The notes under the pieces are model-generated. The model had not been told where the DNA came from, did no database searches, and was given only the letters and a program-made list of their open reading frames with translations. The translations under genes were made by a program, and so were the position numbers. From an archaeon (GTDB taxonomy: Archaea > Nanobdellota > Nanobdellia > Pacearchaeales > GW2011-AR1), in NCBI GenBank assembly GCA_018651605.1, contig JABIDS010000009.1, forward strand, positions 84,563 to 148,562: a stretch of 64,000 nucleotides of DNA, written 5' to 3'. The first letter of the stretch is position 1. The number at the start of each line of letters is the position of its first letter. Positions 42,251 to 64,000 of the stretch are shown in pieces.

Positions 42251-42304
42251 TTTAATTAAGGATATTCTTCATTTATTAAATTAACTAAACAATTACTTAC
42301 TTGT

Positions 42305-45346: not shown

Positions 45347-45381
45347 CTCATTTTCCCCATCTTTGATAATATCCACTCTTT

Positions 45382-45606
45382 CTAAATATTCATAAACCTC
45401 TCAACCGCTTCTTTTGCCCTTTTTGAAGATATCTTAAATCTTTTCATTAATAATTTGTAAGTGTTAGAATTTATCTTCTCTTCTACATATAATGGAACTA
45501 AAAAATCCCAAAAGTTTCCAAAGTGTGGGGAATCGCAGGGTTCTATTAATTCAGCATTTACTATTTGTCTTGTTTCAGGAGACCATACTTTTATTTTTTT
45601 TACCAT
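45382..45606 (-). CDS. hypothetical protein (74 aa, island)
   Basis: ORF abutting the upstream gene. Confidence 0.45.
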   Translation of the reverse strand: MVKKIKVWSPETRQIVNAELIEPCDSPHFGNFWDFLVPLYVEEKINSNTYKLLMKRFKISSKRAKEAVERFMNI

Positions 45607-46116: not shown

Positions 46117-46206
46117 ATCAATTTCTCGGAATTCCTAATAAAATTCCGAACCCCCTTATAAATAATTCCGAACCCCATAATTAACATTTTACCGTCTATA
46201 AACATC

Positions 46207-46530
46207 CTAAAAATCCTCCTGAAGCTCATCTTTCATACCTATTCCGAATTCCGAATTTGCACATGTGTCCCCATAAGAGAATAAGATTAATCTATTGAGA
46301 TTAGTCTTTATCCTCGCTATTTTATTTAATCTTGGGAGCATTAAGATTGATTTATGTGGGTTTTTTCTCTCAGACCGCTGGGAATCCTTTAATGTGAGTG
46401 TACACATATTTGAGGTTTTTTTATTACCTATTGGTCTTATATGAACTTTTTCCATTTCTTCAGAAATTTGATTTTTAGTAATCCCAAACTTCCCTACCCT
46501 AGTGCAATTGAACTTTTTATTAATACTCAT
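46207..46530 (-). CDS. hypothetical protein (107 aa, island)
   Basis: ORF only. Confidence 0.45.
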   Translation of the reverse strand: MSINKKFNCTRVGKFGITKNQISEEMEKVHIRPIGNKKTSNMCTLTLKDSQRSERKNPHKSILMLPRLNKIARIKTNLNRLILFSYGDTCANSEFGIGMKDELQEDF

Positions 46531-46657
46531 TTTTATTTTAAAGTATCACTCCTTAATTTATTTTTCGTATATCTTGCCTCATATTTAAGTTTAGTTTTTG
46601 TTTCTCTTTCTCTTTCCAATTTATTTTCTTTTGTTGTTGTCATTTTATTTTAAAAGA

Positions 46658-46672
46658 AGGGGCAATGCCCCT
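46658..46672 (-). terminator. GC-rich hairpin followed by T-run on the minus strand
   Basis: aggggc-aat-gcccct is the only GC-rich hairpin in this AT-rich spacer. On the minus strand it is followed by tctttt, downstream of the putative Rep operon. Confidence 0.3.
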
Positions 46673-46730
46673 CCAATTCTCGCAGGCAACTAATAAACCA
46701 ATTGGTAATTTAATTCGCGAGTATATTTGT

Positions 46731-46853
46731 TCATTCTAAATCATCTCCAATGAGGTGCTCATCCATTTTATTTGAACATTCCTTACAGAGTTCTGAAATA
46801 TATTCTGTCTTCTCTTTCAAACATCCATTACATTTTATTTTATTTTTTTTCAT
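46731..46853 (-). CDS. possible zinc-ribbon peptide (40 aa)
   Basis: Hand-translated MKKNKIKCNGCLKEKTEYISELCKECSNKMDEHLIGDDLE (CxxC...CxxC). Its start overlaps the upstream stop. Confidence 0.35.
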   Translation of the reverse strand: MKKNKIKCNGCLKEKTEYISELCKECSNKMDEHLIGDDLE

Positions 46854-47008
46854 TATATTTCTCCAAATTCTTTTAATAATCTCCTTTGTTGATTTAGTTC
46901 TAGGGTTTCTTTTTCTTTTTCTGAATAATCTTCAGGATAGTTTTTCCTTCTGCGTTTTGAATCCAAAAGCATGGACTCAAGTATTTTGTTGTCAGTTTGC
47001 TCGGTCAT
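46853..47008 (-). CDS. possible small protein (51 aa)
   Basis: Hand-translated MTEQTDNKILESMLLDSKRRRKNYPEDYSEKEKETLELNQQRRLLKEFGEI. Confidence 0.3.
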   Translation of the reverse strand: MTEQTDNKILESMLLDSKRRRKNYPEDYSEKEKETLELNQQRRLLKEFGEI

Positions 47009-47057
47009 TTTTGGTTACCATCACCCCTAGGATTTAGTAGCCTCTTTTAATCACCTC

Positions 47058-49187: not shown

Positions 49188-49494
49188 CTTCTGATGATTT
49201 GTTTATTCTATTAAAATTATCAATATTTTCAAAACACAATGTTAATTTAACAGGATTTATACTCCAACCTTCTGCGATTTGATAGATAAGTTTTGCAGTT
49301 TTTGGTAAGTCATATCCTACCAAAATTTGTCTTACTCTTCCTTGAGAAATTCCTGCCTTTATTCCTGCTTCCTTATAATCTCGAAATCTTAACCTCAGGT
49401 ATGTTTTCAAATCATTTGCGTTTAAATCATCATTAAGTAGGTATTTATTAGAGATGATATTGTTAATATTTGGGTTTGATTGTGAATTTTTCAT
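49159..49494 (-). CDS. HTH DNA-binding protein (111 aa)
   Basis: YKEAGIKAGISQGRVRQILVGY shows the helix-turn-helix pattern. Confidence 0.55.
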   Translation of the reverse strand: MKNSQSNPNINNIISNKYLLNDDLNANDLKTYLRLRFRDYKEAGIKAGISQGRVRQILVGYDLPKTAKLIYQIAEGWSINPVKLTLCFENIDNFNRINKSSEDEKGVENDN

Positions 49495-49495
49495 C

Positions 49496-49651
49496 TTAAA
49501 CGGCCTTGATTGCAGAATTTAATTTCTGATTTTCTCTTAAGATTTTATTTAAAGGGATTTCAATATCATTCTCAATTATAAAAGTTAATTTTGGAAATCT
49601 CTCTCGAAATTCATCGTTAATAAAAGGTTTTTTATTTGATTCAAATTGCAT
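49496..49651 (-). CDS. possible small protein (51 aa)
   Basis: Hand-translated MQFESNKKPFINDEFRERFPKLTFIIENDIEIPLNKILRENQKLNSAIKAV. Packed between two genes with overlapping or abutting codons. Confidence 0.35.
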   Translation of the reverse strand: MQFESNKKPFINDEFRERFPKLTFIIENDIEIPLNKILRENQKLNSAIKAV

Positions 49652-49790
49652 TTTGTTTTTCCTGAATTTTTTGTAACACTAAAAATCTAATAAAAGAGGA
49701 TGTTGATAATCCAGAATCCTCTGCAATTTTTAATATTCTTTTTTTATTTTTATCGTCTATAAAAAATGTTATTGATTTTCCTTTTTCCAT
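49641..49790 (-). CDS. ribbon-helix-helix protein (49 aa)
   Basis: Hand-translated MEKGKSITFFIDDKNKKRILKIAEDSGLSTSSFIRFLVLQKIQEKQNAI is a classic RHH. First gene of the minus-strand operon. Confidence 0.55.
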   Translation of the reverse strand: MEKGKSITFFIDDKNKKRILKIAEDSGLSTSSFIRFLVLQKIQEKQNAI

Positions 49791-49929
49791 TTTACTAATA
49801 ACCTATGGTATTTTATAGTACTTTAAGGTAGATATGGTTTATAAACATTTCTATCATATAGTTTTATAGTTTACCATAATGTTTATATATTGATTTAGAC
49901 TTCTAATTTAAATATTATCCAAAAACAAG

Positions 49930-50532
49930 ATGGTTCAAAAACAAATTAACTCAAATGAAGAAGGTGTAAAGAATCTTTTTTTTGACAAAGAAACTCTTGA
50001 AAATGATTTTGAAGGTCTGATGACTTCTCTAACAGATATTGAACAAGGAGTAATAAAGATTTTATATGAGAAAAAACACGCTATGACAATGAGTAAAATA
50101 AGAGGTCTTTTAGTTGATGCTTATTTTCATTACTTAATAGAATTTTATGAAGAAAATACTAAAAAAAAGATTAACAACTTGGCTGAAAAGTCTATTAAAT
50201 GGAGACCTAATTTAGAATTAACATTTTTACAGGCAGAAAAGGTCATGCAAGGAATTACTAAAAAGATGAAAGAAAGGGGTGATAAAGCATTGTATGAGAG
50301 CCAGAGACTAAAAGAAATCAATGATGTTATGATTAATAATGGAATTATACTTCCTTCTAGGAATCTTGTTAATTCCTCCTTGATTAATCTAAAAAGAATG
50401 GGCTTAGTTTCTTTTAGATATGTTATTCCAACCAATTCTCTTAATAAGGAGGATTTTAATAAAAAAGATAGATATCAAAGAGAAATATGGTTCTTAAATC
50501 CTAAATTTTATACTTTTCTAAAAAAGTTATAA
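49930..50532 (+). CDS. hypothetical protein with wHTH-like segments (200 aa)
   Basis: IEQGVIKILYEKKHAMTMSKIRGLL and SSLINLKRMGLVSFRY resemble winged-helix recognition regions. Confidence 0.5.
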   Translation: MVQKQINSNEEGVKNLFFDKETLENDFEGLMTSLTDIEQGVIKILYEKKHAMTMSKIRGLLVDAYFHYLIEFYEENTKKKINNLAEKSIKWRPNLELTFLQAEKVMQGITKKMKERGDKALYESQRLKEINDVMINNGIILPSRNLVNSSLINLKRMGLVSFRYVIPTNSLNKEDFNKKDRYQREIWFLNPKFYTFLKKL

Positions 50533-50572
50533 TCCCTTAATTGTTTAAAACCCGAACTATAACTTCTATTAC

Positions 50573-50584
50573 TGCTCGAGGGAT
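50573..50584 (+). repeat. attR core (tgctcgagggat)
   Basis: Exact 12-bp copy of the tRNA-Tyr 3' end (35808-35819). Confidence 0.75.
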
Positions 50585-50630
50585 ATCCTGTTTTCTATAA
50601 ATTTAAAAACTTGAATATCTTTAGAATTGT

Positions 50631-51320
50631 ATGGAAGAGGGGATGTTAGAAGCAGCAAAGGTATTAGAATCTGAATCTAGAAATAATGGTTTTCTATTGA
50701 TTGTTTTTTTGATTTTGAGTTTTATGATTATGGTTGTGATTTCGATTTTTGGGTTTTTTTATTTTGGTGGAGATTCTGATGAAGGTAATAAATCTTTTTC
50801 TAATGATAGTTTGTTACAAAGTAATGTAAGTGCAGGTTCTGTTGTGAATGTTAGTGATGGAGGTGGGGAAGGTGTTAATGGATCTTTGGTGGGAGATGAT
50901 AATTCTAGTGATGAGGGTGTTAATGAGTCTGTTTTTGATGATGGAAGTGTTCCTAATCCGACAGGTTCTATAAAAATTTTTAAGATAAAAGATGATGAAG
51001 GAGAATATTTTTGTAATAATGTTACAAATTCTGAGCATGGAGTAAGGGTTTATACTTATAGGATTGTGAATGGGGTTAAGAATTTGTCAGAAGAATTTGT
51101 GGATAGTGCTAAAGTGAATAATTTGTGTGACCATTTTAATGTTAATGTGACTAATTATTATATAAAATGGGAATGGGAGGCTGTTGAAGGTATTGATGGC
51201 TATAGAATTTATCAGCATTATGCTCTTAATAATATTACTAAAAATTATAATTATTATGTTGATATGAAGGTTGGTTTTCATTCGTTAATTGATATGGGTT
51301 TGGATTTCTGGGTTTCTTGA
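50631..51320 (+). CDS. membrane-anchored secreted protein, hypothetical (FN3-like C-terminus)
   Basis: TM helix, G/S/D/N-rich linker, then YYIKWEWEAVEGIDGYRIYQ. Uses the chromosomal G/T-ending codon style. Confidence 0.6.
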   Translation: MEEGMLEAAKVLESESRNNGFLLIVFLILSFMIMVVISIFGFFYFGGDSDEGNKSFSNDSLLQSNVSAGSVVNVSDGGGEGVNGSLVGDDNSSDEGVNESVFDDGSVPNPTGSIKIFKIKDDEGEYFCNNVTNSEHGVRVYTYRIVNGVKNLSEEFVDSAKVNNLCDHFNVNVTNYYIKWEWEAVEGIDGYRIYQHYALNNITKNYNYYVDMKVGFHSLIDMGLDFWVS

Positions 51321-51383
51321 TTGATTGGGATATAACTATTTTATTATATCAAAATTTATAATAGGAGTATTTTATTTTAGTAT

Positions 51384-51674
51384 ATGGATAGGAAGAATTT
51401 GGCTGATAAATTAAAGTTTGTTGCGCAGACTGGGTTTTTGGTTCCTGCGATTGGTGAAGGGATTTATGGTGGTTCTCTTTTGATTTATGATTTTTGGATT
51501 AATGATTGTTTTTATTTTAAAGAACAAGTTACAAATGTTATTGGTGAGGTTAATTATGATGGATTTCAGTTGATTGCTCCAATTGTTGGAATTGGAAGTT
51601 ATATCTATTCTGTAGGGTATTGTTCTAATAAAATAAATAAGTTTGTTGATAAAATTGTTGGGATAGATAATTAG
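51384..51674 (+). CDS. hypothetical small membrane protein (96 aa)
   Basis: ORF with hydrophobic segments. Confidence 0.45.
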   Translation: MDRKNLADKLKFVAQTGFLVPAIGEGIYGGSLLIYDFWINDCFYFKEQVTNVIGEVNYDGFQLIAPIVGIGSYIYSVGYCSNKINKFVDKIVGIDN

Positions 51675-53041
51675 TTTCTCTTTTCATTAATATAAAATGC
51701 TCTGTTAGAATTTGTGTCTTTTAATTTTCCGTCTCTTTCATAAACTGCTCTTGCTGAGGGTAGTTCGAATCTTCCTATGACGCCTATTTTTGAATAAATA
51801 ATATAACTAAATACTCTTTCTTCTCCTTTGTTTAATGAGTCAATTTCCCAGCTTAATCTGTGATTGGTTAGGTCTATTTCATTTGGAGGAATTGCTCCGA
51901 ATCTTTCGTATAGTTTTACTAATGGTGGTAATTTATCAATGAGTCTGATTTTTGTTATGTGATTTTTTGCTTTAATCCTCAATGTTACTTTTAGAGCGAA
52001 TTGTCCTCCTTTTGTTTTGACAAATGATACGTTTTTGTTTAAGGTTAGATGGTTTGTTGAAGATTTTTTTGAAAGATATATTATTCCGAAGATTAGTAGG
52101 AATATGAATACTGGATAGAACCAATTTGTGGTTGAGATTATTTTTAGTTCTTCATTTGAGACAAGTTCTTTTTCCCAGATGTAGTATCTTCCAAATCCTT
52201 TGAATCCTGACTTAGTTGGTTCAATGTTGAAATTAGTGAATAGAGCTGTTATTAGGTTTTTTTCTATTCTTATGCTTACACTTTTTTTTACATTTCCTAC
52301 GTTGTGTCTGATAATTTCTTGTCTTTTTTTAATTAATCCTGAAGATGATTCGCTTGAATATAAATCTTCTTTTTCTAGGAAATTAATCATTGCTTCTTTG
52401 GTTGCTGATTTGTCTTGGTATTTTATTTTTGTGTTTGTTAAATAAGAGCCTGCTTCTAATGGTTTTATTTTTTCCTTGTCTAATTGTATCTCTATTTCTT
52501 TTATTTCTAGTGATTCTAATGTAAGTGTTTCTTTTTGTTCGAAAAATGCTGAGCTGAATTCTAGATTTAGGTTTTTGAAATCTTTTGATATTCTGTTTTT
52601 AATTGAAACTTGTATTGTATTTGAGTTTGGGTTTATGTTTGCAAAGGTTATGTCAAATGATGATTCTAAGTCTGCTACATTTAGTGTTAAGGTTTTCTTT
52701 TGTATGTCTTCTTCTGAATCTTTTATTATGTATTCAAATGTAAAAAATCCTTTTTTTGATAAAAGTGCTTTTTGTGGCATGGCTGAGATTCTTATTGTTT
52801 TTGTTTGTTGAGAGTTTATTGTGAAGGAATCTGGTTCTATGTCTACACCTACTAAAGAGTAGATTTCAAAATTATCTGAATCTTGGTTGTTTGTTATTAC
52901 TAAGTCGAAGATTGCTGGTTCGTTTAAATCGCTGATTGCAGTGTTTGATATTGGGATTGTGTTTATGTCTAAGTTTGTTGCTGAAAGAAGATTTAAGTTA
53001 ATTAATAATATTAGTGAGATTAAAATGTGGAGGTGTTTCAT
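51671..53041 (-). CDS. secreted/membrane protein with DUF11-like beta-sandwich C-terminal region
   Basis: N-terminal signal and an internal TM helix. The C-terminal LSWEIDSLNKGEERVFSYIIYSKIGVIGRFELPSA pattern is DUF11-like. Confidence 0.6.
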   Translation of the reverse strand: MKHLHILISLILLINLNLLSATNLDINTIPISNTAISDLNEPAIFDLVITNNQDSDNFEIYSLVGVDIEPDSFTINSQQTKTIRISAMPQKALLSKKGFFTFEYIIKDSEEDIQKKTLTLNVADLESSFDITFANINPNSNTIQVSIKNRISKDFKNLNLEFSSAFFEQKETLTLESLEIKEIEIQLDKEKIKPLEAGSYLTNTKIKYQDKSATKEAMINFLEKEDLYSSESSSGLIKKRQEIIRHNVGNVKKSVSIRIEKNLITALFTNFNIEPTKSGFKGFGRYYIWEKELVSNEELKIISTTNWFYPVFIFLLIFGIIYLSKKSSTNHLTLNKNVSFVKTKGGQFALKVTLRIKAKNHITKIRLIDKLPPLVKLYERFGAIPPNEIDLTNHRLSWEIDSLNKGEERVFSYIIYSKIGVIGRFELPSARAVYERDGKLKDTNSNRAFYINEKRN

Positions 53042-53124
53042 TTGATGAAAACATAATGAAGATATATAAATATTTTTGTGGGTGGTTGTATATTATAGGG
53101 TTATTGGGTTGAAAAATTATTGAA

Positions 53125-53379
53125 TTTCCGCCCCTGCGAAAAGCCGGTTTCACCTTTTCCTTTTCGCGCCTTTGCAGTCTTGAAATTTTGTTAGAGGGTT
53201 ACTTTTTGCAGATGAGAAGATTAGGTTTTGTCATGAATGCTAAAAATGTTTTTCATAGCTTCTGATATTTAGAAGATTTCAAAAAAATTAGAAATTTGGG
53301 TTGGACTTGTCCTCCCAAATTGATATAAAATAAGATGAGCGGAGCGAATGAATCTACGCGAGCGATAGCAAGCATTTAG
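53125..53379 (+). repeat. mosaic intergenic repeat, full-length copy
   Basis: Stem 1 at 53136-53167 (gcgaaaag/cttttcgc); bulged-T hairpin at 53294-53320; 3' block gatataaaataagatgagcggagcgaatgaatctacgcgagcgatagcaagcatttag. Confidence 0.85.
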
Positions 53380-53406
53380 CTAATGAGGATAATTATTAAA
53401 AATAAG

Positions 53407-53904
53407 CTAACTCTTAGCCTCCAAAGCTAAGAATGCTTTGGATTGGTCGATTAGTTCGAGTAATTCTTCGACAAGTCTTTGTTCATAATCATCAACTCTG
53501 TTTCTTATTAGGTATCTATCATAAACTCCTCTTAAGAATTTGAAGAAAGGTTTGTTTTCCCATCTATTTTCGTAGTCTTTTTCTATAACTGCTGTAAAGC
53601 TGACTTCTAATGTTCCTGAGTTCATTTTTACTTTTTTGCCTTCTCTTTGGACTTCGACGTCTTTCATTCCTAGAATCATCCATCTTATTTTTATTCTAAA
53701 TTGGAAATAATCAGAGATTTTTCTAAATGCTTCCCATTCTATTTCTATTTCTTTTGCATCTCCTGCAACTTTTTCAGAGTATTTTTTTTCTGTTAAATCA
53801 TAGCCTTCACTGATTATCCAATCGTATGCAAAACTATAATAATCTTTGAAATGAAAAATTCCTCCGTGTTTTATCTTCCCTTTGTAAATCTGATCTTTTT
53901 CCAT
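53407..53904 (-). CDS. hypothetical protein (165 aa)
   Basis: ORF only. Confidence 0.5.
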   Translation of the reverse strand: MEKDQIYKGKIKHGGIFHFKDYYSFAYDWIISEGYDLTEKKYSEKVAGDAKEIEIEWEAFRKISDYFQFRIKIRWMILGMKDVEVQREGKKVKMNSGTLEVSFTAVIEKDYENRWENKPFFKFLRGVYDRYLIRNRVDDYEQRLVEELLELIDQSKAFLALEAKS

Positions 53905-53978
53905 TTTTTTGTTGTTATATAATAGTTAAAGAAGTTGTCTATTTAAATATTTTCATCTGTATGTTTTTAGATGATTTG

Positions 53979-54536
53979 TTATTCTCCCATCTCTTTACAT
54001 CTTTCGCATAATTTTTTTCCGTCAACACTGTATAATAAATCAAATCTTTCGCATTCTTCACATATTCCTTCTTCAAAATTTTCCCTTACTGTTTCTCCTT
54101 TTAGGGCGTAGCCTTCTTTTGCGATTTGAAATAATTCTGGTTGGATTTTTAAGATGTCTTTAAGAGTTAGATATCCAATGACTTTTTTATTTACTGTTAC
54201 AGGTAATCTTCGGAATTTAACTCTTTTCATTAATTTTACTGCGTCGTAAATATCTGCGGACGGTTTTATTGTTGTTATTTTTCTTATACAAATGTCTCCT
54301 ACTTTAATGCCGCTTAAATCCTTTTTTTTGCTTAATGCCCAGATTATGTCTTTTTCAGTTAGTATTCCTCTTAATAGTCCTTTTTCTACAACTATTAAAC
54401 TTCCTACTCTTTTTTTGACCATTAATTTAACTGCTTCTAAAACTTGTGCATCAAAATTTATAGAAATAAAGTTTCTTGCCATGACATCTCCAACCTTGAC
54501 TCCGACTTTGACTGAAAAAGGGTTCCATTTTTTCAT
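53979..54536 (-). CDS. CBS-domain pair protein with C-terminal zinc ribbon
   Basis: Two CBS repeats (VGDVMARNFISI..., VGDICIRKITTI...). C-terminal CEECERF...CERC. Confidence 0.8.
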   Translation of the reverse strand: MKKWNPFSVKVGVKVGDVMARNFISINFDAQVLEAVKLMVKKRVGSLIVVEKGLLRGILTEKDIIWALSKKKDLSGIKVGDICIRKITTIKPSADIYDAVKLMKRVKFRRLPVTVNKKVIGYLTLKDILKIQPELFQIAKEGYALKGETVRENFEEGICEECERFDLLYSVDGKKLCERCKEMGE

Positions 54537-54619
54537 GAAATATGGAGTTATTGAGGGTATTTATAGTTGGTTAGGGATTAAAGTATGTTTTGTAGAATAT
54601 ATATTCTTGTTTGTGAATC

Positions 54620-54627
54620 TTTAAAAG
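54620..54627 (+). promoter_or_regulatory. TATA box for thermosome gene
   Basis: tttaaaag is centred 26 nt upstream of ATG 54649. Confidence 0.45.
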
Positions 54628-54648
54628 TTGATTTGGGTTTTGATTTTT

Positions 54649-56271
54649 ATGAGCGACAAACAACCGATTTATATTTTGCCTGAAAGTACTGAGAGAACTG
54701 TAGGTAAGGATGCTCAGAGGAATAATATTTTGGCTGCGAAGTTGGTTGCTGATTCTGTGAAAACGACTTTGGGGCCTAAGGGAATGGATAAGATGCTTGT
54801 TGATTCTGTTGGAGAGATTACTGTTACGAATGATGGTGTTACTATTTTGGAGAAAATGGAGATTGAGCATCCTGCGGCTAAGATGATGGTGGAGATTGCG
54901 AAGACTCAGGAGACAGAGGTTGGTGATGGGACGACGACTGCTGTAATGCTTGCTGGAAAACTTTTGGAAAATGCAGAGAAACTTTTAGATATGAAGATTC
55001 ATCCAACTGTGATTACTAAGGGATATAATTTGGCTGAGAGAAAAGCTAAGGAACTTTTGGAGGAGTTGAGTACTGGTGTGAGTATTGAGAGAGAAGATGT
55101 TTTGAAGCATATTGTTATGACTGCTATGACTGGAAAAGGTGCTGAAAGTGTTAAGGAGAAATTTGCAGATATAATTATTAAGGCAATTAAACAGATTCAG
55201 GAAGATGGGAATGTTGATTTGACTAATATTAAAATTGTTAAGAATAAGAGTAATAGTGTTGAGGATAGTGAGTTGATACGTGGTGTTGTTGTTGATAAAG
55301 TTCGGACGTCTATTGATATGCCTTCTAAGGTTGAGAATCCGCGGATTGCTTTGATTTCTGATGCTTTGGAGATAAAGAACCCTGAAGGAGATACGAAGAT
55401 TTCTATTTCAGAGCCTGCGCAATTGCAGAGTTTTATGGATAGAGAAGAAGAGAATCTTAAGAGGATTGTTGAGAAGATTAAGTCTGTAAATGCAAATGTG
55501 ATTTTTTGTCAGAAGGGAATTGATGATGTTGTTCAGTATTATTTGGCTAAGGAGAATATTTATGCTTGTAGGCGTGTTGCGAAGTCTGATATGGAAAGTT
55601 TGGCTTTTGCTACTGGTGGGAAAATTATCACGAACTTGAATGAAATTTCTATTGAGCAATTGGGTAAGTGTGAAAGTATTGAGGAAGTTAAACAAGGAGA
55701 TGATTCAATGACTTATGTTACTGGTTGTGAGAATCCAAAGGTTTTGAGTATTTTGGTTAAGGGCGGTAGTGAGCATGTTTTAGATGAGATTGAGAGAGCG
55801 ATGATGGATGGTTTGGGTGATGTTGCAGCTGTTATTAAAGATAAGAAAATTGTTGCTGGGGCAGGTGCTATTGAGATTGAATTATCTAAGAGATTGAGAG
55901 GTTTTGCAAATACTTTGTCTGGTAGGGAACAGTTGGCTGTTCAGGAATTTGCAAATGCTTTAGAGTTTATTCCTTTGACTTTGGCTGAAAATGCTGGGTT
56001 GGATCCAATTGATATTTTAACTGAGTTGAAATCTAAACATGATAATGGTGAGGTTTCTGCAGGGATTAATATTTTTAATAATAGAATTGAAGATACTTTG
56101 GTTCAGGGAATAATTGAACCTGCTAAAATTAAGAGACAGGCATTGAGTTCTGCTACTGAGGTTGCGATTATGATTTTAAGGATTGATGATGTTTTGGCTT
56201 CGAAATCTTCAGGGAATTCTAGAGGTGTTGGTTCTGGTGGTGGGATGGGTGGAATGATGGGGATGGATTAA
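54649..56271 (+). CDS. ths: thermosome subunit (group II chaperonin)
   Basis: [40 protein letters not shown] and a [11 protein letters not shown]-terminus. Start moved to ATG 54649. Confidence 0.95.
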
Positions 56272-56280
56272 AAGATTGGT

Positions 56281-56425
56281 TCGCTTTCGCTCACAACTTA
56301 TTTTATGTCAAAGTGCCTGACTTTGTCAAGGCACTTTTCTAATTTTCTTGATATCTGTTAAAATTTAATATTTTATGGAGATTAGTTTTCTTTTTGATTG
56401 TTGTTATGGTTTGTGGTTTTAAGTG
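56281..56425. repeat. rearranged mosaic repeat copy (module B hairpin inverted, module A tail forward)
   Basis: 56281-56340 is the reverse complement of hairpin-GCGAaAGCGA..ATAAAATAAG..GAGCGAA. It is followed by the forward agttttctttttgattgttgttatgg. Confidence 0.65.
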
Positions 56426-56510
56426 AATGATTTATATTAATATTTTTTAATAACTTTAAAGTGGTAATAATCGAAAAGTTTATAAAGTCTTTATTTATTG
56501 AAATGTTAAT

Positions 56511-57014
56511 ATGACTGAAGAACAAACACAATCTCAATTTATCTTTTGGGTAAAAGAAGCGGGAGTCTTTAGACCTGCTGAATTGAAAATGCCTGAGAAT
56601 ACAACTACTTATGGTTTAGAAAAAAATATAGAATTAAGAGAACAAGATATTCCTTTAGATTCATTAAATTTATTAAGTTCTGTTTATCTGGGGGATATAA
56701 ATATCTTTAAAGGACAACTAGAAGGATATGCCTCTAAAGATGTTTTTAAGGAATTTAAATCTCATGTATATGGAACAGTTTCTAATATTGTAAAACTTGC
56801 TGAAGGAGTTGCAAAAGAACAAGGAGCTCCATATTTTGCAGTAAATGTTGTTCAAACACCTAAGGATAGAACTTGGAAATTTGAGAGAAATAGAGATTTA
56901 TTAAAATACGTTGCAGCTATAAATTTCACAAGTATAGTAAAACCATTTAATGAGCCAAAAGGACCCTCAGAATTTGTCCTTTGTCCTACTGCACAATTAT
57001 ATGTATCAAAATAA
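56511..57014 (+). CDS. hypothetical protein (167 aa)
   Basis: ORF with A-ending codon style on the plus strand. Confidence 0.5.
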   Translation: MTEEQTQSQFIFWVKEAGVFRPAELKMPENTTTYGLEKNIELREQDIPLDSLNLLSSVYLGDINIFKGQLEGYASKDVFKEFKSHVYGTVSNIVKLAEGVAKEQGAPYFAVNVVQTPKDRTWKFERNRDLLKYVAAINFTSIVKPFNEPKGPSEFVLCPTAQLYVSK

Positions 57015-57065
57015 TTAGATTCTTCTTAAGATAACATTTAAATATGCTTTACACTTTTCTATTTT

Positions 57066-58103
57066 ATGTTAGATCAATATATTTCAAATGATTATCTTCG
57101 GGCATTAGTTGTAATGATAATACTTTTTATTGTAATTAGGTTGGGTTTATATTTTGTTACGAAGATTGCGATTTTTTTGACTAGGAAAACAAAGAGTGAT
57201 TTGGATGATAAATTAATTGAACGGTCTTCGAATCATTTGCATCTTTTGACATTGTTTATTGTTTTGTTTTTTGGTATTGGTGAAATATCTTTGGCAGAGA
57301 ATGTGAAATTTATTGTGTATAATATTATTCATTCTTTGATGGCCGTAGTTTTAGCGCATCTTATTTATGTTGTCTTGGATTTGTTGTTTATTAGGGCGGT
57401 GAGTTTGATTTCTCAGAGAACTAAGACTCGAGTGAATCAGAGTTTGGTTGCTTTATTTCATAGTTTTTTGAGTGTTGTTCTGATTCTTTTAGTTGTGATT
57501 TATATTCTTGATTTATGGGGATTTGAGATTGGACCTTTACTTGCTGGTTTGGGAATTGCTGGTTTGGCTATTGCTCTTGCATTGCAACCTATACTAAGTA
57601 ATATTTTTTCAGGAGCTTCAGTGATATTGGATAAGTCTGTGAAGGTTGGAGATTTGGTTTATTTAGAATCTCAGAGTATTAAGGGAAGGATTGAAAAAAT
57701 TGGATTGAGAAGCACGCAGATAAGAACTTTTGATAATGAATTGATAATTATTCCGAATAATAAATTGGCTGATGGTGTGATTCAGAATGTTGCTTTGCCT
57801 GAGCCTAAGACTAGGGTGACTGTTCCGTTTGGTGTTGCTTATGGTTCTGATATTGCACAAGTTAAGAAGATTGTTCTGGGAGAGATTGGTAGGATTAAGG
57901 ATTTTGTGAATGAACCTGAGCCTGTTATTAGATTTAGTGAGATGGCGGATTCTTCTTTGAATTTTACTGCTTATTTTTATGTTAATAGTTTTGAAAATAG
58001 GGCTAGTGCTTTAGATGAAGCAAATACTCGGATCTATAATGCTTTGAATAAAGCAGGTATTGAGATTCCGTTTCCGCAGATGGATGTTAGGGTGGAGAAA
58101 TAG
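57066..58103 (+). CDS. mechanosensitive ion channel (MscS family)
   Basis: Multiple TM helices, then VKVGDLVYL...IRTFDNELIIIPNNKLADGVIQN, the MscS beta-domain signature. Confidence 0.8.
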   Translation: MLDQYISNDYLRALVVMIILFIVIRLGLYFVTKIAIFLTRKTKSDLDDKLIERSSNHLHLLTLFIVLFFGIGEISLAENVKFIVYNIIHSLMAVVLAHLIYVVLDLLFIRAVSLISQRTKTRVNQSLVALFHSFLSVVLILLVVIYILDLWGFEIGPLLAGLGIAGLAIALALQPILSNIFSGASVILDKSVKVGDLVYLESQSIKGRIEKIGLRSTQIRTFDNELIIIPNNKLADGVIQNVALPEPKTRVTVPFGVAYGSDIAQVKKIVLGEIGRIKDFVNEPEPVIRFSEMADSSLNFTAYFYVNSFENRASALDEANTRIYNALNKAGIEIPFPQMDVRVEK

Positions 58104-58122
58104 AGGTTTGGTTGATTGAGGG

Positions 58123-58415
58123 GTTTCCGCCACCGCGAAAATCCGTTCCTTACGTCACTTTCCCATTTTCTTACCGAGTCTTGAAATGTTGAGGAAGGGT
58201 TTATTTTTGAAGATGAGTTTTCTTTTGATTGTTATGAGAACTTAGTTTTTTACGAGTGATTAAGATTTAGGAGATTTCAGTATTTAGCGAAGCGGACTGG
58301 CGCAAGCCGTCCGCGAGAGCGATATAGAATAAGATGAGCGGAGCGAATGAAACTTGTGGAAGAGGGATATAAGCGAACGAAGTGAGTTATCTACGCGAGC
58401 GAAGCGAGCGTTTAG
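58123..58415 (+). repeat. mosaic intergenic repeat, full-length copy (with a 37-nt insertion in module B)
   Basis: Bulged-T hairpin with a GCAA loop at 58292-58314. The segment acttgtggaagagggatataagcgaacgaagtgagtt is inserted between gagcgaatgaa and atctacgcgagcg. Confidence 0.85.
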
Positions 58416-58431
58416 GTATTTTTATTTTTTA

Positions 58432-60312
58432 CTAACTATCAATCAATTCCTTCATCCTATCAGTCAAAAACCTTGTGAATTTTCCTCTTCCGTTTGTTAG
58501 GTGGAGGTTTTCTTTTGCTCTTGAAAGTGCAACATAAAATAATCTTTTTTCTTCTTCCTCTTTATCGTAATCTTCTATTTTAATCATTTCAATTATTGGA
58601 TGGTCTGAGGCTTTGCATGGGAAGTTTTGTTCATTGCATCCTATTATGAAAACAACTTTGGCTTCTAGTCCTTTTATTGCGTGGATTGTTGCAAGTGTGA
58701 TTTCTCCTTGTTTTGCAGTTAGGAGGGATTTTTCTTCTTCACTTCTGATTATGTGTTGGATTTTTTTTTCTTTCATTAATTTTGAAAGTGTATTTAGTTG
58801 TCTGTTTGTTCTTGCTAGGATGAATATTTCTTGTTTGTCTATTGTGGAGTTTTGTATCTTGTTTATTATGAAATTCATTTCTTGGGTTTCTGAATCAAAG
58901 TTTGAGAGAGTTATTTTTCCATTATCTTCTAATGAATGGTTTAAGTCTGGAAGGTTCATGTCTCTTATTGATTCGTTGAAGAAATTAATGATGTTTTTGG
59001 TGCTTCGGTAATTTTTTGTTAGGCTTATTGTTTCAGGATTTGTATGTGTTTTTTCAAAGTTTAGAATGTAGTTTATGTCTGAGCCTCTCCATCCGAAGAT
59101 TGATTGTCGTGGGTCTCCTACTGAGAAGAAATTTGGGGCGTTGAAGAGATTAAGGAATTTGATTTGGGTTGAGTTGACATCTTGGTATTCGTCTACAAGA
59201 ATGTGTTCAAATTCTGGGATGAATTCTTTATTTTCGGTTAGGAATTTCATTGCGTCTAAAACTTGGTCTGAGTAATCTCTTAATCCTGCACGGAACATAT
59301 ATTCTTTTAAATATTTACAAATATTGTAAATCATCTTTGCTATTTCTTTGTCGTCTTCATCTGCCTCTTCTGAAAAATCGTAAAGATCTAAATTTTTATA
59401 TTTGAAATATTCTAAAATAAAAAAACAATCATTCATGAAAATGCTTGCTAGTTGTTCTTTTGTTTTTAATCTTTTTTGGGCTACTGAAAAATATTTGTCT
59501 ATTGCTTCATTCATTTTTAAATTTAGATTTTGTAATGCTCCACTTAGTGCTATAACCTTGTTTCCATAGCTCATTATTTTAACATTTCTTCCGTAAATTA
59601 ATTGTCCATATTTTTGTAGAATCTTTTCGCAGAAAGAATTGAATGTTTCTACTTGGACGTCATTAATGTTTAGTTGGTTTAGTCTTGTTATCATTTCTTG
59701 ACGAGCTTTTCTTGTGAAAGTTACTGCGAGTATTTTTTCTGGGTTGATTCCTTTGAATTTTACTAAGAACTCTATTCTTTTTGTTAGTGCTGTGGTTTTT
59801 CCTGAGCCTGCTCCTGCAATGCATAATATTTTTTGGTTGCTAGAGATGATTGCTTTTTTTTGTTCGTCGTTGTAGTTATTTAGAAAAAAATCTAATTCTT
59901 TGAAAATTTCTCTGTCTTTGTCTGTTATTATTGTTTTTTTGAAGATGAAATTGTTTTTTAATTTTTTAGAATTTAATGTTGGGTTTTGAAATTCTTTTAT
60001 TCCTTTTTGTGTTAATTTTAAGTATTTCATAAATCTGTTGTTGTTTGCTTCTACGAATTCTAAGAGATTGTTGCTTACTAGGTTGTTTATGATTTTTTCT
60101 AGTTGTTCTTTAGTGGTTTTAGAGAGGATTCCGAATTCTTCTAGGAGGTTGAGTCTGTTTAGTTTTATAGATTTGTTATTTGGATTTCCTTGTAAAAAAT
60201 CTATGAGAAGTTTTTTTCCGACGCCGAAGGGGATTTTTTGAATTGTTTTTAAAATTATTAAATAATCTTGAGAGTCATCTCTTTTGTAGGTTGGGATTGG
60301 TTGTGAGTTCAT
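58432..60312 (-). CDS. UvrD/PcrA-family SF1 helicase with N-terminal winged-helix-like domain
   Basis: IAGAGSGKTT (Walker A), LVDEYQDVN, GDPRQSIFGWRG, and TIHAIKGLE...LFYVALSRAK. About 150 aa of extra N-terminus. Confidence 0.85.
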   Translation of the reverse strand: MNSQPIPTYKRDDSQDYLIILKTIQKIPFGVGKKLLIDFLQGNPNNKSIKLNRLNLLEEFGILSKTTKEQLEKIINNLVSNNLLEFVEANNNRFMKYLKLTQKGIKEFQNPTLNSKKLKNNFIFKKTIITDKDREIFKELDFFLNNYNDEQKKAIISSNQKILCIAGAGSGKTTALTKRIEFLVKFKGINPEKILAVTFTRKARQEMITRLNQLNINDVQVETFNSFCEKILQKYGQLIYGRNVKIMSYGNKVIALSGALQNLNLKMNEAIDKYFSVAQKRLKTKEQLASIFMNDCFFILEYFKYKNLDLYDFSEEADEDDKEIAKMIYNICKYLKEYMFRAGLRDYSDQVLDAMKFLTENKEFIPEFEHILVDEYQDVNSTQIKFLNLFNAPNFFSVGDPRQSIFGWRGSDINYILNFEKTHTNPETISLTKNYRSTKNIINFFNESIRDMNLPDLNHSLEDNGKITLSNFDSETQEMNFIINKIQNSTIDKQEIFILARTNRQLNTLSKLMKEKKIQHIIRSEEEKSLLTAKQGEITLATIHAIKGLEAKVVFIIGCNEQNFPCKASDHPIIEMIKIEDYDKEEEEKRLFYVALSRAKENLHLTNGRGKFTRFLTDRMKELIDS

Positions 60313-60352
60313 TTTAGAATTAGAAGGTTATGGTTTTTAAAATGTGGTGAGG

Positions 60353-61327
60353 TTAGTCGAATAGTTCGCTTAGGCTTTCTCCAATACTTATTCTATAAAT
60401 TGCTTCTCCAAGTAAGGGGGCAAAAGAGATAGTTTCAATAAAATCATTCTCAGGAATTTTTAAAGTATCTCCAATGTATAATTTATCTATATACTTATCA
60501 ATACCTTCAAATCCTTTAGTAAATAATCCATGAGTGCAATATACAATAACTTTTTTTGCTCCATGGTCTTTGCAAGATTTTGCTGCATCTTTAGAAGTCC
60601 CTCCAGAATCCCACATATCATCAACCATCAAAACATTTTTACCTTCAACATTTCCCAAAATTCCTAAACTTCCTCCAACTTCTCCTGGAACTTTTCTATA
60701 TTTATCTCCCATTGCTAAATCTGTAATTCCTAATTTATCTGCACAATTTCTTGCTCTTTTTATTCCTCCTTCATCTGCACTCATAACAATAAGGTCTTCT
60801 AAAATTCCAGGATTATACTTATTTAAATGAGATTCTAACACTGGATGAGAATCTAGTCCATCAAAAGGTATTTTATAAAAACCTTGTATTGCAGGATTAT
60901 GAACATCTAAAGTCAAAACCCTATCTGCATAAAGTCCAACAACATCTGCTACAACTTGAGCTCCAATAGGCACTCTTGATTCATCTTTTACATCTTGTCT
61001 TGCAAATCTTAAATAAGGAAAAACATCTATAATCTCATGAGCCGATGAATTTTTTAAGGCATGATTTACTAAGCAAAGTTCTGTAAACCAACGAAAAGGT
61101 TCCAAATTAGAATCATGAATCAAGAAACAATCTCTTTTTCTAATATCTTTCTCAATCTTTGGTTTAATTTCTCCATCCCTAAAACTATACTTTTTAGAAT
61201 GACTATCAATTTTCCTTAATTCAAATTCTATTCCTTTTTTATTTAGTATATATTCATGAATTCTACAAGCTAATCCCCAAGTTTTACCTTTAGGATTTGC
61301 AATAATGGAACATTTATTATCTACCAT
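60353..61327 (-). CDS. prs: ribose-phosphate pyrophosphokinase (PRPP synthetase)
   Basis: LDVHNPAIQGFYKIPFDGL and the PRPP loop VDDMWDSGGT. Confidence 0.85.
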   Translation of the reverse strand: MVDNKCSIIANPKGKTWGLACRIHEYILNKKGIEFELRKIDSHSKKYSFRDGEIKPKIEKDIRKRDCFLIHDSNLEPFRWFTELCLVNHALKNSSAHEIIDVFPYLRFARQDVKDESRVPIGAQVVADVVGLYADRVLTLDVHNPAIQGFYKIPFDGLDSHPVLESHLNKYNPGILEDLIVMSADEGGIKRARNCADKLGITDLAMGDKYRKVPGEVGGSLGILGNVEGKNVLMVDDMWDSGGTSKDAAKSCKDHGAKKVIVYCTHGLFTKGFEGIDKYIDKLYIGDTLKIPENDFIETISFAPLLGEAIYRISIGESLSELFD

Positions 61328-61390
61328 CTTTTACCTAAAAAACAAAAATTAATTTATAAACATTATAGCAATGAAAGATATACATTAGGT

Positions 61391-63175
61391 TTATTTGATG
61401 TATCCGCCTTTTTGGAGGTTCCAGAGTTTTTTGTATTCTCCTTTTTGTTGGATTAGTTCTGAATGTTTTCCCATTTGGATTATTCTACCTTTTTTTAAGA
61501 CGATGATTCTATCTGCGTTCATGATTGTTGAAAGTCTGTGTGCGATTATTACAGATGTTCTGCCTTTTAGTAATTTTTGAAGGTCTTTTTGGATTTCATT
61601 TTCTGTTTCTGAATCTAATGCAGATGTGGCTTCATCTAGAACTAATATTTTTTTGTTTGCTAAGATTGCTCTTGCTATTGAAACTCTTTGTTTTTCTCCT
61701 CCTGAAAGTTTGACTCCTCTTTCTCCTACAATTGTGTTTTCTTTGTCTTGAAAGTTTTCTATTACCTTATCTAATTGTGCAAATTTTATTGCTGATAAAA
61801 CTTGTTTTCTTGTTGCTTTTGGATTTGAGAACTTTATGTTGTTGTATATTGTGTCGTCGAATAAAACGCATTCTTGAGGAACAATTCCTGTTTCACTTCT
61901 AATTGATTCTTGTTTGAATTCTCGGATATCTTTGTTGTCAATTAAAATACTTCCTTGATTGACGTCATAAAACCTGTTTAATAGTTTTACTAGTGTTGTT
62001 TTTCCGCAACCAGAATGTCCTACAAATGCGACTTTTTCGTTTTCATTTATTTTTAGATTGAAATCTTGGAGGAATTTTCTACGCCCATAATTGAAATTTA
62101 CATTTTTGAATTCAATTGTTCCTTTTGATATCTTTAAGTTTGGTGCGTTGTTTTTGTCTTTTATTTCATTTTCAAATCTATTGTATTCAAATAATTCTTG
62201 GAAGTCTGCCATTGAACGATAAAATCCTCTTAATCCGTGGACAAATCCGAATATGTATACTAGGAGTCCTGCGAATGTTGTGTAAATGAATGTTAATGTT
62301 CCTAGGCTTATTTGTCCATTTAAGAATTTTACTAGAGAGAAGTAAAGTAAGACAAATGTTCCTGTTCCTAAGATTAGGGATTGTCCTGCGCTCATCCATC
62401 GGAAGTAGTCCCAGTTTTTTAGGTAAAAGGCTCGTGTTGTGTCTGATAGTTTGACGAATTTGTCTTCTACTACTTTTTCTTTTCCGTAGTATTTTACAGA
62501 GTCTATGTTTGTAAAAATATCTGCGACGTTTCCTTTTTCAACATCTTCTGCTTTGTTTGCTTCTATGTTTGATTTTTCTTGGAGTCTTTGCAAGATAAAA
62601 CTGTAACTAATGAAAATTATTACGGTGATTAACATAATCATTGCTGAAAATGTTTCTAGGTAGATTAAGGAGAAGAAAACTAATGTTAGTTGTAAGATTA
62701 GAGTTATGAAATTGAATGAGATTATGTCTGTCATTCTTTCTACTGCTCCTGCGCCTCTGCCGATTCTGGAAATTAAGCTTCCTGTTTTGTGTGTTGTGTG
62801 GAAGTTGTGGTCTAATTTTAATATATGGTTGAAGAATTTTCTTTTTAAATCTGTGATGACATTATTTTCAAGTCTGTTTAGGAAATGAATTCTTAACCAA
62901 TTTGAAATTGATGTTAGGATGAAGAAGGTGATGAAAACTGCTCCAACAATTATTAAGATGTTTGTGAAGGCTGTTCTGGTTAATATTCCTGTGTTGAAAT
63001 CTGTTCCATTGTCAATTATTACTTTGAATAAAAATTTGTCTACAATGACTCTTATTTCTTTTATTAATACGAAAAGCACGACTAGGAACATTAGTAATTT
63101 GTATTTTTTTAAAAGATTCCAATATATTCTGAAGTTGTATTTGAAGTCTATTTCTTTTGATGATTTTGTTCTCAT
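61391..63175 (-). CDS. ABC transporter, fused permease/ATPase (MsbA/multidrug-exporter type)
   Basis: Six TM helices at the N-terminus; GHSGCGKTT, LSGGEKQRVSIARA, ILVLDEATSALD. Confidence 0.9.
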   Translation of the reverse strand: MRTKSSKEIDFKYNFRIYWNLLKKYKLLMFLVVLFVLIKEIRVIVDKFLFKVIIDNGTDFNTGILTRTAFTNILIIVGAVFITFFILTSISNWLRIHFLNRLENNVITDLKRKFFNHILKLDHNFHTTHKTGSLISRIGRGAGAVERMTDIISFNFITLILQLTLVFFSLIYLETFSAMIMLITVIIFISYSFILQRLQEKSNIEANKAEDVEKGNVADIFTNIDSVKYYGKEKVVEDKFVKLSDTTRAFYLKNWDYFRWMSAGQSLILGTGTFVLLYFSLVKFLNGQISLGTLTFIYTTFAGLLVYIFGFVHGLRGFYRSMADFQELFEYNRFENEIKDKNNAPNLKISKGTIEFKNVNFNYGRRKFLQDFNLKINENEKVAFVGHSGCGKTTLVKLLNRFYDVNQGSILIDNKDIREFKQESIRSETGIVPQECVLFDDTIYNNIKFSNPKATRKQVLSAIKFAQLDKVIENFQDKENTIVGERGVKLSGGEKQRVSIARAILANKKILVLDEATSALDSETENEIQKDLQKLLKGRTSVIIAHRLSTIMNADRIIVLKKGRIIQMGKHSELIQQKGEYKKLWNLQKGGYIK

Positions 63176-63440
63176 TTTGGTCTCTTACTTTTTTAAAGTA
63201 GTTAATTTTTTGGGATGGGTTTAAATATTAGATTGTCTCGTGGTTTTTATGTTATATTCAGATAATGAATCTTTGGATAAGATGTTTGAAAAGGGTGATG
63301 ATGGTGATGCGGATGATGAAGATGAGGTGGATGGGGATAGTTAGGGGATGAGGGATTGGAGTGATTCTTAATAGAAAGTTGATATGTGATTTAAAGTTTT
63401 CGGTTTGATTTCAAGAGGCTCGGTTTAAGGGGGTTTGGAT

Positions 63441-63695
63441 TTTCCTCCACCGCAGAAAGCCGTGCTCGCACTTTCCCTTTCTGCCCTTAGTAATCTTGAA
63501 ATCTTGTTAGAGAGTTATTTTATTCAGAGGAGTTTTCTTTTGGTTGTTATGAGGGTTAAAAAGTTTTGTATAAATATTAAGACTTAGAAGATTTCAGTAT
63601 TTTAGTGAAGCAGACTGGACTTGTCCGTCTGCGAGAACGACATAAAATAAGTGAGTGGAGCGAATGAATCTACGCGAGCGATAGCGAGTGTTGAG
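63441..63695 (+). repeat. mosaic intergenic repeat, full-length copy
   Basis: Stem 1 at 63452-63484 (gcagaaag/ctttctgc); bulged-T hairpin with a CTTG loop at 63610-63632. Confidence 0.85.
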
Positions 63696-63726
63696 ATAGT
63701 TTTTTTTATAATTTCTAGAAATCTTT

Positions 63727-64000
63727 TTATTCCCTATCTTCTGCGCAACAGATTAAAGAGTTCATGCAATTTTCAACGCAACCTAAGTTTTTTTCGTTTT
63801 CATTGCATTCTAAATCAAATGATTTGTCTACTATTCTTCCGCCTTCTACTGTGCATTCTGCGATTGTGATTATGTTTTCATCTACGACTTCCCAGTCATT
63901 TATGTAGATTAATTCTTTTTCTTCTTTATTATCTACGCTTACTACAAAACATCCTGGGCATTCTACGGGGTTTATGTTTTCTATTGTTGGTGGGTCTTGG
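63727..64000 (-). CDS. cysteine-rich hypothetical protein (3' part; 5' end outside window)
   Basis: Hand-translated open frame ...ECPGCFVVSVDNKEEKELIYINDWEVVDENIITIAECTVEGGRIVDKSFDLECNENEKNLGCVENCMNSLICCAEDRE, with the stop at 63727-63729. Absent from the track because no start codon lies in the window. Confidence 0.5.
   Translation of the reverse strand, partial: QDPPTIENINPVECPGCFVVSVDNKEEKELIYINDWEVVDENIITIAECTVEGGRIVDKSFDLECNENEKNLGCVENCMNSLICCAEDRE

Follow-up and report, generated by a model that had tools for sequence, protein, structure and literature searches.

The stretch of DNA considered here, a window of 64,000 nt to which all positions refer unless another sequence is named, comes from a Pacearchaeota-like DPANN archaeon with a G+C content of about 32%. 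It carries archaeal housekeeping genes, among them those for the thermosome, TBP, an ATP-dependent DNA ligase, ribosomal protein S10 and PRPP synthase, and the nearest relatives of the thermosome (74-87% identical) belong to Pacearchaeota or Nanoarchaeota wherever they are named. DPANN archaea have very small, gene-dense genomes. Within the window, convergent genes for MscS and a UvrD-like helicase are separated by a gap that is entirely occupied by one copy of a repeated element, designated c58 (58104-58431, plus strand, with a conserved core at 58121-58426). At 58292-58314 this copy contains a hairpin with an unpaired T, which an initial annotation had described, together with its flanks ("module B"), as recurring in six places. 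The hairpin is confirmed. It is, however, one module of a larger mosaic, strand-specific intergenic repeat of about 300 nt (270-330 nt), which the annotation had missed.

Six copies of the bulged-T hairpin

On the plus strand, the hairpin is found at 16403-16424 (GCACCC-t-GAC-gaa-GTC-GGGTGC), in the full element c16; at 58292-58314 (GCGGAC-t-GGC-gcaa-GCC-GTCCGC), in c58; at 63610-63632 (GCAGAC-t-GGA-cttg-TCC-GTCTGC), in c63; at 53294-53320 (ATTTGGG-tt-GGA-cttg-TCC-t-CCCAAAT; 53293-53321 with an 8-bp outer stem), in c53; and, as a solo copy, at 9975-9997 (GTCGG-tt-GGA-cttg-TCC-t-CCGAC). The sixth copy is on the minus strand, in an inverted partial module B (56311-56336, AAGTGCC-t-TGAC-aaa-GTCA-GGCACTT; 56310-56337 in the element). 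All six sequences and positions are exactly those first reported. The shape ascribed to every copy has an outer stem, then a T left unpaired on the 5' side, then 3-4 bp of inner stem around a 3-4-nt loop. It is the minimum-energy as well as the centroid structure of all six, with DNA and with RNA parameters alike; the folding z-scores range from -1.9 to -4.1 for DNA and from -0.8 to -4.4 for RNA. When the window was scanned loosely for the same architecture, 28 matches per strand were obtained; the G+C-rich ones are the six hairpins and the others are A+T runs.

Two parts of the initial description hold for some copies only. A single unpaired T is present in four, whereas the bulge at 53294 and 9975 is tt/t, equally readable as a T.T mismatch next to the same bulged T. 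Common module B flanks (AGYGAAGC / GCGARARCG) enclose the hairpins at 16403, 58292 and 63610, but not the other three: those at 53294 and 56311 are flanked instead by TTAG-A...TTGAYAT, and the 9975 copy is not part of module B but falls within the final codons of a minus-strand PGM/PMM-like open reading frame (ORF). At 9956-10060 this gene reads through the solo hairpin, so that its last 14 or so codons (...PLVGGQVQPTQLNNY and stop) are encoded by repeat sequence. The hairpins are 22-29 nt long, five of the six are intergenic, and in five of the six the tetranucleotide TTAG is found 0-4 nt 5' of the stem. Their density is six copies per 64 kb.

Pairing is kept although the stems vary, as had been proposed. 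In a hand-made structural alignment of the six hairpins, all 53 stem cells are Watson-Crick pairs and eight of the nine pairs are altered on both sides, whereas shuffling the 3' partners gave a mean of 59% paired and never reached the observed value (0/5000 trials). The 58292 and 63610 copies are about 65% identical in the interior of the hairpin, as against 86-90% in the flanks. None of the 53 pairs is G.T, despite a very strong G/T-enriching, C-depleting bias of the plus strand (see below), which argues that wobble is not tolerated. The inner core TGGACTTGTCC is identical in the copies at 9975, 53294 and 63610, and the inner stem-loop has therefore only three independent versions. Moreover, in a set of six copies the stems could represent swapped palindromic cassettes instead of stepwise compensatory substitutions. 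Selection for hairpin shape acting on one strand is nevertheless well supported. To this extent the suggestion of selection on structure stands, shape being kept over sequence and on one strand; the structure could be read either in RNA or in single-stranded DNA.

Composition, orientation and distribution of the element

Copies of the element were recovered with nhmmer, using profiles derived from four aligned intergenic regions. Four are full, all on the plus strand, and at least three are partial or rearranged; together they cover about 2.5% of the window. Besides c58, which has a 39-nt insertion at 58351-58389, the full copies are c16 (16171-16497), with a 71-nt insertion that carries two extra hairpins (16325-16347 and 16349-16385); c53 (53123-53388), in which a continuous 8-bp outer stem is formed without the GAA/GAGA internal loop; and c63 (63438-63706), in which the flanks have changed from GC..GC to GT..AC and the outer helix is retained. 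The copies are about 65% identical on average, and conservation is patchy: the blocks TTGTTAGAGGGTT, GATATARAATAAGATGAG and GAGCGAATGAATCTAC are near-invariant and the stems variable. Module A alone is present at 17714-17818 (plus strand), and a partial module A at 9262-9409 (plus strand) has its hairpin loop expanded by the insertion of two hairpins, at 9288-9310 (TTAGAGAATC-ttcg-GATTCTCTAA, plus strand) and 9312-9340. The solo bulged hairpin is accompanied by an adjoining module-A-like stretch, GAGAGGGTTTATTTTT (9975-10015, plus strand). An inverted partial module B (56273-56362, minus strand) adjoins the thermosome stop codon and is joined, at the near-palindromic CTTGATATC, to a forward fragment from the middle of module A (56346-56411, plus strand). 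The junction CTTGATATC (within 56273-56411) corresponds to the inverted repeat TTGAAATC/GATTTCAA of intact elements, and thus looks like the product of an inversion or a template switch at that point.

The other modules are also hairpins. That of module A is two-levelled (GCAGAAAG-cc-GTGC-tc-GCAC-tttcc-CTTTCTGC at 63452-63484, with equivalents at 16184-16216 and 53136-53167, all on the plus strand); its outer stem is paired in 45 of 48 cells, with five of eight pairs altered on both sides, and its inner stem in 15 of 15 cells, with all three pairs altered on both sides. Downstream of the bulged-T hairpin, c58 has a mini-hairpin in which tandem G.A pairs surround GCGGAGC (T-GA-GC-gga-GC-GA-A, 58335-58347, plus strand); in c16 and c63 the corresponding GT..GC gives a G.T wobble. 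A 3' terminal hairpin (ACGC-GA-GC-gaa-GC-GA-GCGT, 58393-58411) is followed by TTAG and a T-rich tail, and has equivalents on the same plus strand at 16464-16482, 53356-53375 and 63672-63691, with the form ACGC-GA-GC-gaa/gga/gata-GC-GA-GYGT across copies. A third hairpin type, AGAGAAT...ATTCTCT, is nested in two elements (9288-9310 and 16325-16347; 0 expected by chance), at different sites: within the module A loop in one and between modules A and B in the other. The stems at 9288 and 16349-16385 open with TTAG and close with CTAA, and that at 16325 is TCAG...CTGA. The strongest DNA hairpins of the window are concentrated in the elements. The TTTCC box of every module A copy (six of six) follows TT(T/G)A(G/A), which in c63 is replaced by TTTGG, and TTTAG/TTGAG closes the conserved core in the four full copies.

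The elements are also rich in two motifs, GCGNAGC and GCGNNAGC, which occur in the window 10 times each (2.07 and 2.0 expected, respectively), most of the occurrences falling inside elements; the inner part of the c58 bulged-T hairpin, GCGCAAGC, is one match to GCGNNAGC. Both motifs are known to form DNA mini-hairpins of extraordinary stability, much above that of the corresponding RNAs (PMC13037366). All 12 element occurrences match the stable DNA mini-hairpin consensus, and only four have a GNRA loop. In the mini- and 3' hairpins, the tandem G.A pairs and G.T wobbles, like the GNA/GNNA loops, exist only on the plus strand; read from the other strand, they turn into C.T and A.C.

The structured strand is the plus strand in six of the seven copies, irrespective of the direction of the neighbouring genes: some copies come after plus-strand genes, some occupy the gap of a convergent gene pair and others face minus-strand genes head-to-head. 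Both tRNA genes are likewise on the plus strand. The skew of G over C at third codon positions, read on the plus strand, is +0.92/+0.88 in plus-strand genes and +0.53/+0.60 in minus-strand genes (positions 1-36000 and 50001-64000, the parts of the window for which this extreme skew holds), and T also exceeds A at synonymous sites. By the usual interpretation of such skews, the G/T-rich strand is the template of lagging-strand synthesis, single-stranded at the fork; the plus strand is thus probably the lagging-strand template. The stretch 36001-50000 has 28% G+C and encodes mostly hypothetical proteins; it shows only a gene-strand skew of about +/-0.3, which suggests a recently acquired or relocated island.

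The element has no sequence relative in any library searched and is previously undescribed. The orthologous c53 and c58 sites are empty in related genomes: in the closest relative (thermosome 84% identical, same sample) 2 nt separate the MscS and helicase genes, compared with the 328 nt of c58, and in relatives with 83-87% thermosome identity (including L011 and L012) 77-83 nt are found at the c53 site, compared with 365 nt in the window. Neither module A nor module B is present in the contigs with thermosome homologues (L008-L012, 83-87% identity), where nhmmer gave no match, or in distant Pacearchaeota carrying homologues, about 56% identical, of a 167-aa ORF of the window (L064-L066). Searches of Rfam returned only two tRNAs in the window at the gathering score and, at E<10 for two elements, only noise (9-15 bits against thresholds of 33-84). 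The 19-base pattern GAGCGAATGNATCTACNCGAG had two matches in GTDB genomes and four in JGI metagenomes, all taken as chance because the match, by nhmmer, was limited to the pattern itself; two patterns searched in IMG/VR gave 49 loci, again all chance, and blastn with the whole element found no match in plasmids and phages. No report of dispersed structured repeats in DPANN archaea was found in the literature searches run. Contigs of the same species in ENA (L001, L062 and L063) re-cover only the window; those from two ENA assemblies are 99.94-99.98% identical to it and start within elements, as repeats are expected to break assemblies; a practical consequence is that the element causes assembly breaks in metagenomes of this lineage.

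Two observations concern related contigs. In L012 (thermosome 83% identical), positions 2233-2528 hold a 295-nt intergenic insertion, absent from the window, in which ATAGCGAAG is followed by a perfect hairpin of 11 bp, AGCTTCATGAC-ttta-GTCATGAAGCT; this may be an unrelated, analogous hairpin element of a sister lineage. In L065, a tRNA-like sequence that by eye appears interrupted is found at 7400-7790, upstream of the 167-aa ORF homologue.

The 167-aa ORF itself (56511-57014) adjoins the rearranged copy and was considered as a cognate protein; it was rejected, having no family or PDB match and occurring also in genomes without the element. It is a conserved hypothetical protein of Pacearchaeota with 22 homologues, and is preceded by a conserved promoter-like motif, AAGTGGTAA...AAAAGTTTATAAA. 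In the closest relative it is missing from the interval that separates the thermosome gene from the MscS gene. Elsewhere in the window, a 1314-aa ORF (29785-33729, minus strand) in which a unit of about 195 nt (about 65 aa) is repeated seven times in tandem is probably a repetitive surface protein, and a T/C-rich tandem repeat with a period of 9-18 nt lies at 35038-35307, between an M10 peptidase/CARDB gene and tRNA-Tyr. The flanking sequence was examined as Pfam-annotated gene maps that cover 10 kb on the left side of the window and 7.8 kb on its right (about 18 kb). Between 0.5 and 7.8 kb beyond its right end lie small hypothetical genes and genes for a dUTPase, a DUF2341 protein and a 411-aa protein with a weak Phage_integrase match; this cluster may be an integrated element adjoining copy c63.

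Single-stranded DNA, RNA or transposon end

Repetitive extragenic palindromes (REPs) are imperfect palindromes of about 20-65 nt that lie outside genes, and the gene for the REP-associated tyrosine transposase (RAYT, also TnpA-REP, a Y1 HUH enzyme) is usually flanked by them. Our preferred reading, a tentative one that we regard as a fair possibility, is that the element is a non-autonomous mosaic repeat, specific to this genome, resembling REPs and bacterial interspersed mosaic elements (BIMEs), that it is read as single-stranded DNA, and that the bulged-T hairpin is its TTAG-tagged recognition module. The 5' two-level, bulged-T, GA-flanked mini- and 3' terminal hairpins would fold on the plus strand when this is single-stranded at the fork. 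The folded modules would be read by a structure-specific protein, most plausibly an HUH-type or similar nuclease or transposase encoded elsewhere in the genome, which would recognise shape (stem and extrahelical T) and the tetranucleotide at the foot; recognition of this kind would let the stem sequence drift freely while pairing is kept. The activity of such a protein, or recombination between modules, may have spread and reshuffled the element into new intergenic sites, in which case the elements would be mobile now or would have been so formerly. What favours single-stranded DNA is the excess of DNA-type mini-hairpins, the lack of wobble despite the C-depleting bias and the TTAG 5' of the foot, and also the species-specific family, the alternative complementary stems, the mosaic and nested make-up and the empty orthologous sites. 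The covariation of the stems, the confinement of the structures to one strand, the placing of six of the seven copies on the G/T-rich strand and the assembly breaks within elements also speak for it. REPs, too, are defined by the tetranucleotide that precedes a short hairpin on its 5' side, are confined to single species and form sub-families with alternative complementary stem residues (PMC6006769, PMC3733652), and like them the present hairpin is short (22-29 nt), imperfect and, in five of six copies, extragenic.

Several observations weigh against this reading. Several unpaired blocks are about 90% identical, as against 65% for the copies on average, and such patchy conservation over the whole element looks like selection on each copy, as for an RNA or for the binding of multiple proteins, and not like a selfish repeat in which only the ends matter. 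RAYT/REP systems are so far on record only from Bacteria, with none from Archaea (PMC6006769, PMC3733652), and the tag is TTAG, not the GTAG of REPs or the CGTC of their second superfamily (PMC3733652, PMC6006769). The cognate HUH transposase that the initial annotation proposed to look for was not found: no Y1/HUH transposase, TnpB, DDE or other transposase is present in the window or in the flanking gene maps, nor is a reverse transcriptase or a Cas protein, the sole recombinase in the flanking maps being the weak Phage_integrase match about 6-7 kb past the right end. No target-site duplication or terminal inverted repeat was seen at the element borders, judged from few copies and without empty-site DNA. 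In c63, the flanks have changed from GC to GT on the 5' side and from GC to AC on the 3' side, which keeps a common outer helix and breaks both mini-hairpins, and this paired change favours one long helix over separate flanking mini-hairpins. The confinement of G.T pairs to the plus strand could partly reflect mutational bias. Finally, the 6:1 orientation bias is not significant alone, and, as both tRNA genes are on the plus strand, co-orientation of expressed RNA genes with replication would explain it equally well.

The main rival, only a little less probable, is that the copies are paralogous structured RNAs, either small RNA genes or 3'-untranslated-region or terminator-like elements, transcribed from the plus strand; the hairpins would stabilise the transcript or bind protein, the conserved unpaired blocks would be functional or protein-binding parts, and the 3' hairpin with a T-run would end the transcript. 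Covarying helices do stand beside the conserved unpaired blocks TTGTTAGAGGGTT, GATATARAATAAGATGAG and GAGCGAATGAATCTAC in copies that are otherwise about 65% identical, and in three of four copies a long-range complement, UGAAAU/AUUUCA (6-8 nt), possibly closes the middle domain. GCAA and CUUG are classical RNA tetraloops, the folding energy is -82 kcal/mol for RNA of the plus strand as compared with -53 for the minus strand, and the orientation is that of both tRNA genes. Three copies begin 17-35 nt past the stop codon of a plus-strand gene, but three are head-to-head with minus-strand genes; a T-run of at least five within 20 nt past the 3' hairpin is seen in two of four copies (c58 and c63), and the lineage-type promoter AAAAGTTTATAAA is not conserved at a fixed position. 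The whole-element fold is no better than that of shuffles (z about -1), no Rfam family matches even at E<10, and absence from close relatives would be unusual for a functional RNA gene. The C:G-closed triloops and GCGNAGC are, moreover, stable motifs of DNA type (PMC13037366), and the bulged hairpin has no G.U pair.

A DNA-level reading had also been offered, in which the extrahelical T was compared with the transposon ends recognised by TnpA of IS200/IS605, and here a general resemblance must be separated from family membership. A tetranucleotide just 5' of the foot of an imperfect hairpin is a feature common to REPs and IS200/IS605 ends (PMC6006769), and the present hairpin, 22-29 nt long and with TTAG close before its foot, agrees with it. 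Strict membership is unsupported, as the end hairpins differ, TnpA was not found and the copies are old. We consider it improbable that the element is an IS200/IS605-derived miniature element of the palindrome-associated (PATE) type, with module A as left-end and module B as right-end hairpin, moved by a Y1 TnpA encoded elsewhere and inserted without duplication 3' of TTGAG/TTTAG. TT(T/G)AG is present just before the conserved core and as its last conserved bases, no inverted repeats or target duplication were seen at the ends, the orientation is that of the presumed lagging-strand template, and the IS200-type TnpA is the only Y1 subclass known in Archaea (PMC6006769). TnpA, however, binds similar hairpins of 20-25 nt at both ends (PMC6006769), whereas the module A hairpin, with an 8-bp stem and a structured loop of about 17 nt, is unlike either module B hairpin, the 5' and 3' hairpins differing wholly in stem length, loop and bulge; neither tnpA nor tnpB is found in 82 kb of sequence and gene map; the copies are about 65% identical, against about 99% for IS200 copies within a genome (PMC6006769); and the internal blocks are conserved beyond the needs of the ends. 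Still less probable is a decaying DDE-type miniature inverted-repeat transposable element or an old duplicated intergenic segment, whose palindromes would be unselected by-products. Partial, truncated and rearranged copies exist and function is not demonstrated, but the stems diverge faster than the flanks and yet lose no pair (53/53; 0/5000 shuffles), no terminal inverted repeats were seen, and features other than Watson-Crick pairs are conserved strand-specifically. Integron-like attC sites, folded single strands recombined by a tyrosine recombinase, share the conservation of shape over sequence and the extrahelical T, and the weak Phage_integrase gene lies near the right end. This explanation is hardly credible all the same: no R''/R' boxes (RYYYAAC/GTTRRRY) flank the hairpin, the copies lie at distances of about 5 kb or more, with housekeeping genes (thermosome, PRPP synthase, ABC transporter) and not cassettes between them, and a hairpin of 22-29 nt is far shorter than attC sites.

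Several further candidates were tried and rejected. By inspection and in both registers, the GAA/GARA loop below the hairpin (5'-GC-GAA-GC...GC-GAGA-GC-3') does not fit a kink-turn (3-nt bulge followed by G.A and A.G) or a sarcin-ricin motif (AGUA/GAA), and the sequence does not fit a bulge-helix-bulge motif or an archaeal origin of the origin-recognition-box type. A small hydrophobic peptide ORF in module A (e.g. MSFLLIVMRT) has its frame broken in c16 (a 1-nt deletion) and in the 17714 copy (a stop codon), and its length varies from 7 to 19 aa. For a CRISPR-repeat-like reading of CTTGAAAT there is neither an array nor cas genes; for the template and variable repeats of a diversity-generating retroelement there is no reverse transcriptase, and the copies differ at bases other than adenine as well. 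Pairing at long range between the 5' CCNCC box and GAGCGGAG was discarded because its register differs among copies.

If the element is indeed read as single-stranded DNA, biology of the REP/RAYT or IS200 type would extend to an archaeal lineage without a prior case, and the GCGNAGC DNA mini-hairpin would have a natural chromosomal setting; if it is RNA, it would be a new multi-copy structured RNA family in a host-dependent organism. A bolder form of the preferred single-stranded DNA reading, which we think unlikely, is that of a first archaeal REP-like system in a streamlined DPANN genome, in which clusters of DNA mini-hairpins and a TTAG-tagged bulged hairpin, folded on the lagging-strand template, would shape genome structure or replication and would not be plain selfish DNA. 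Its reader might be a domesticated HUH nuclease, a primase or a factor that excludes single-stranded DNA-binding protein, as at G4, ssiA and N4.

Comparison with known repeats and DNA hairpins

Among known systems, REPs and BIMEs share with the element a hairpin that is short (22-29 nt), imperfect, rich in G+C and extragenic within A+T-rich surroundings, together with a conserved tetranucleotide on the 5' side of its foot, species specificity, sub-types with alternative complementary stems, tolerance of bulges and mismatches, and mosaic clustering with other motifs. The element differs from them in its TTAG tag, in its archaeal host and in the lack of a RAYT in the window and the flanking gene maps. 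In addition, the hairpins of a cluster here all point in one direction, whereas those of BIMEs and REPINs alternate, and the cluster includes long conserved unpaired blocks. The transcribed bacterial repeats of the ERIC, BOX, Correia/NEMIS and bcr1 type are likewise dispersed, modular and intergenic, of about 100-300 nt, with stable predicted hairpins and often in 3'-untranslated regions; those repeats, however, are bounded by terminal inverted repeats, target duplications or both, and their fold is symmetrical whichever strand is read, whereas the present element is strand-asymmetric and neither terminal inverted repeats nor target duplication were seen in it.

With IS200/IS605 ends and PATEs the element has in common that its subterminal hairpins are strand-specific and include an extrahelical base, that it is connected with the presumed lagging-strand template, and that neither inverted terminal repeats nor target duplication are seen. 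It is set apart from them by its unlike end hairpins, its old copies (about 65% identical) and its extensive internal conservation, and by the lack of a Y1 transposase (TnpA) and of TnpB in the window and flanking gene maps. A different comparison is that with natural DNA mini-hairpins, which occur at the phage G4 origin, at ssiA of RSF1010 and in the hairpin promoters of phage N4 (PMC13037366). Exact matches (GCGAAGC, GCGGAGC, GCGAAAGC, GCGAGAGC, GCGATAGC and GCGCAAGC) are clustered on one strand of the element, some of them flanked by tandem G.A pairs. The known examples, however, are single sites on phage or plasmid single strands that are read by primases or RNA polymerase, whereas here they are parts of a dispersed chromosomal repeat that has no known reader.

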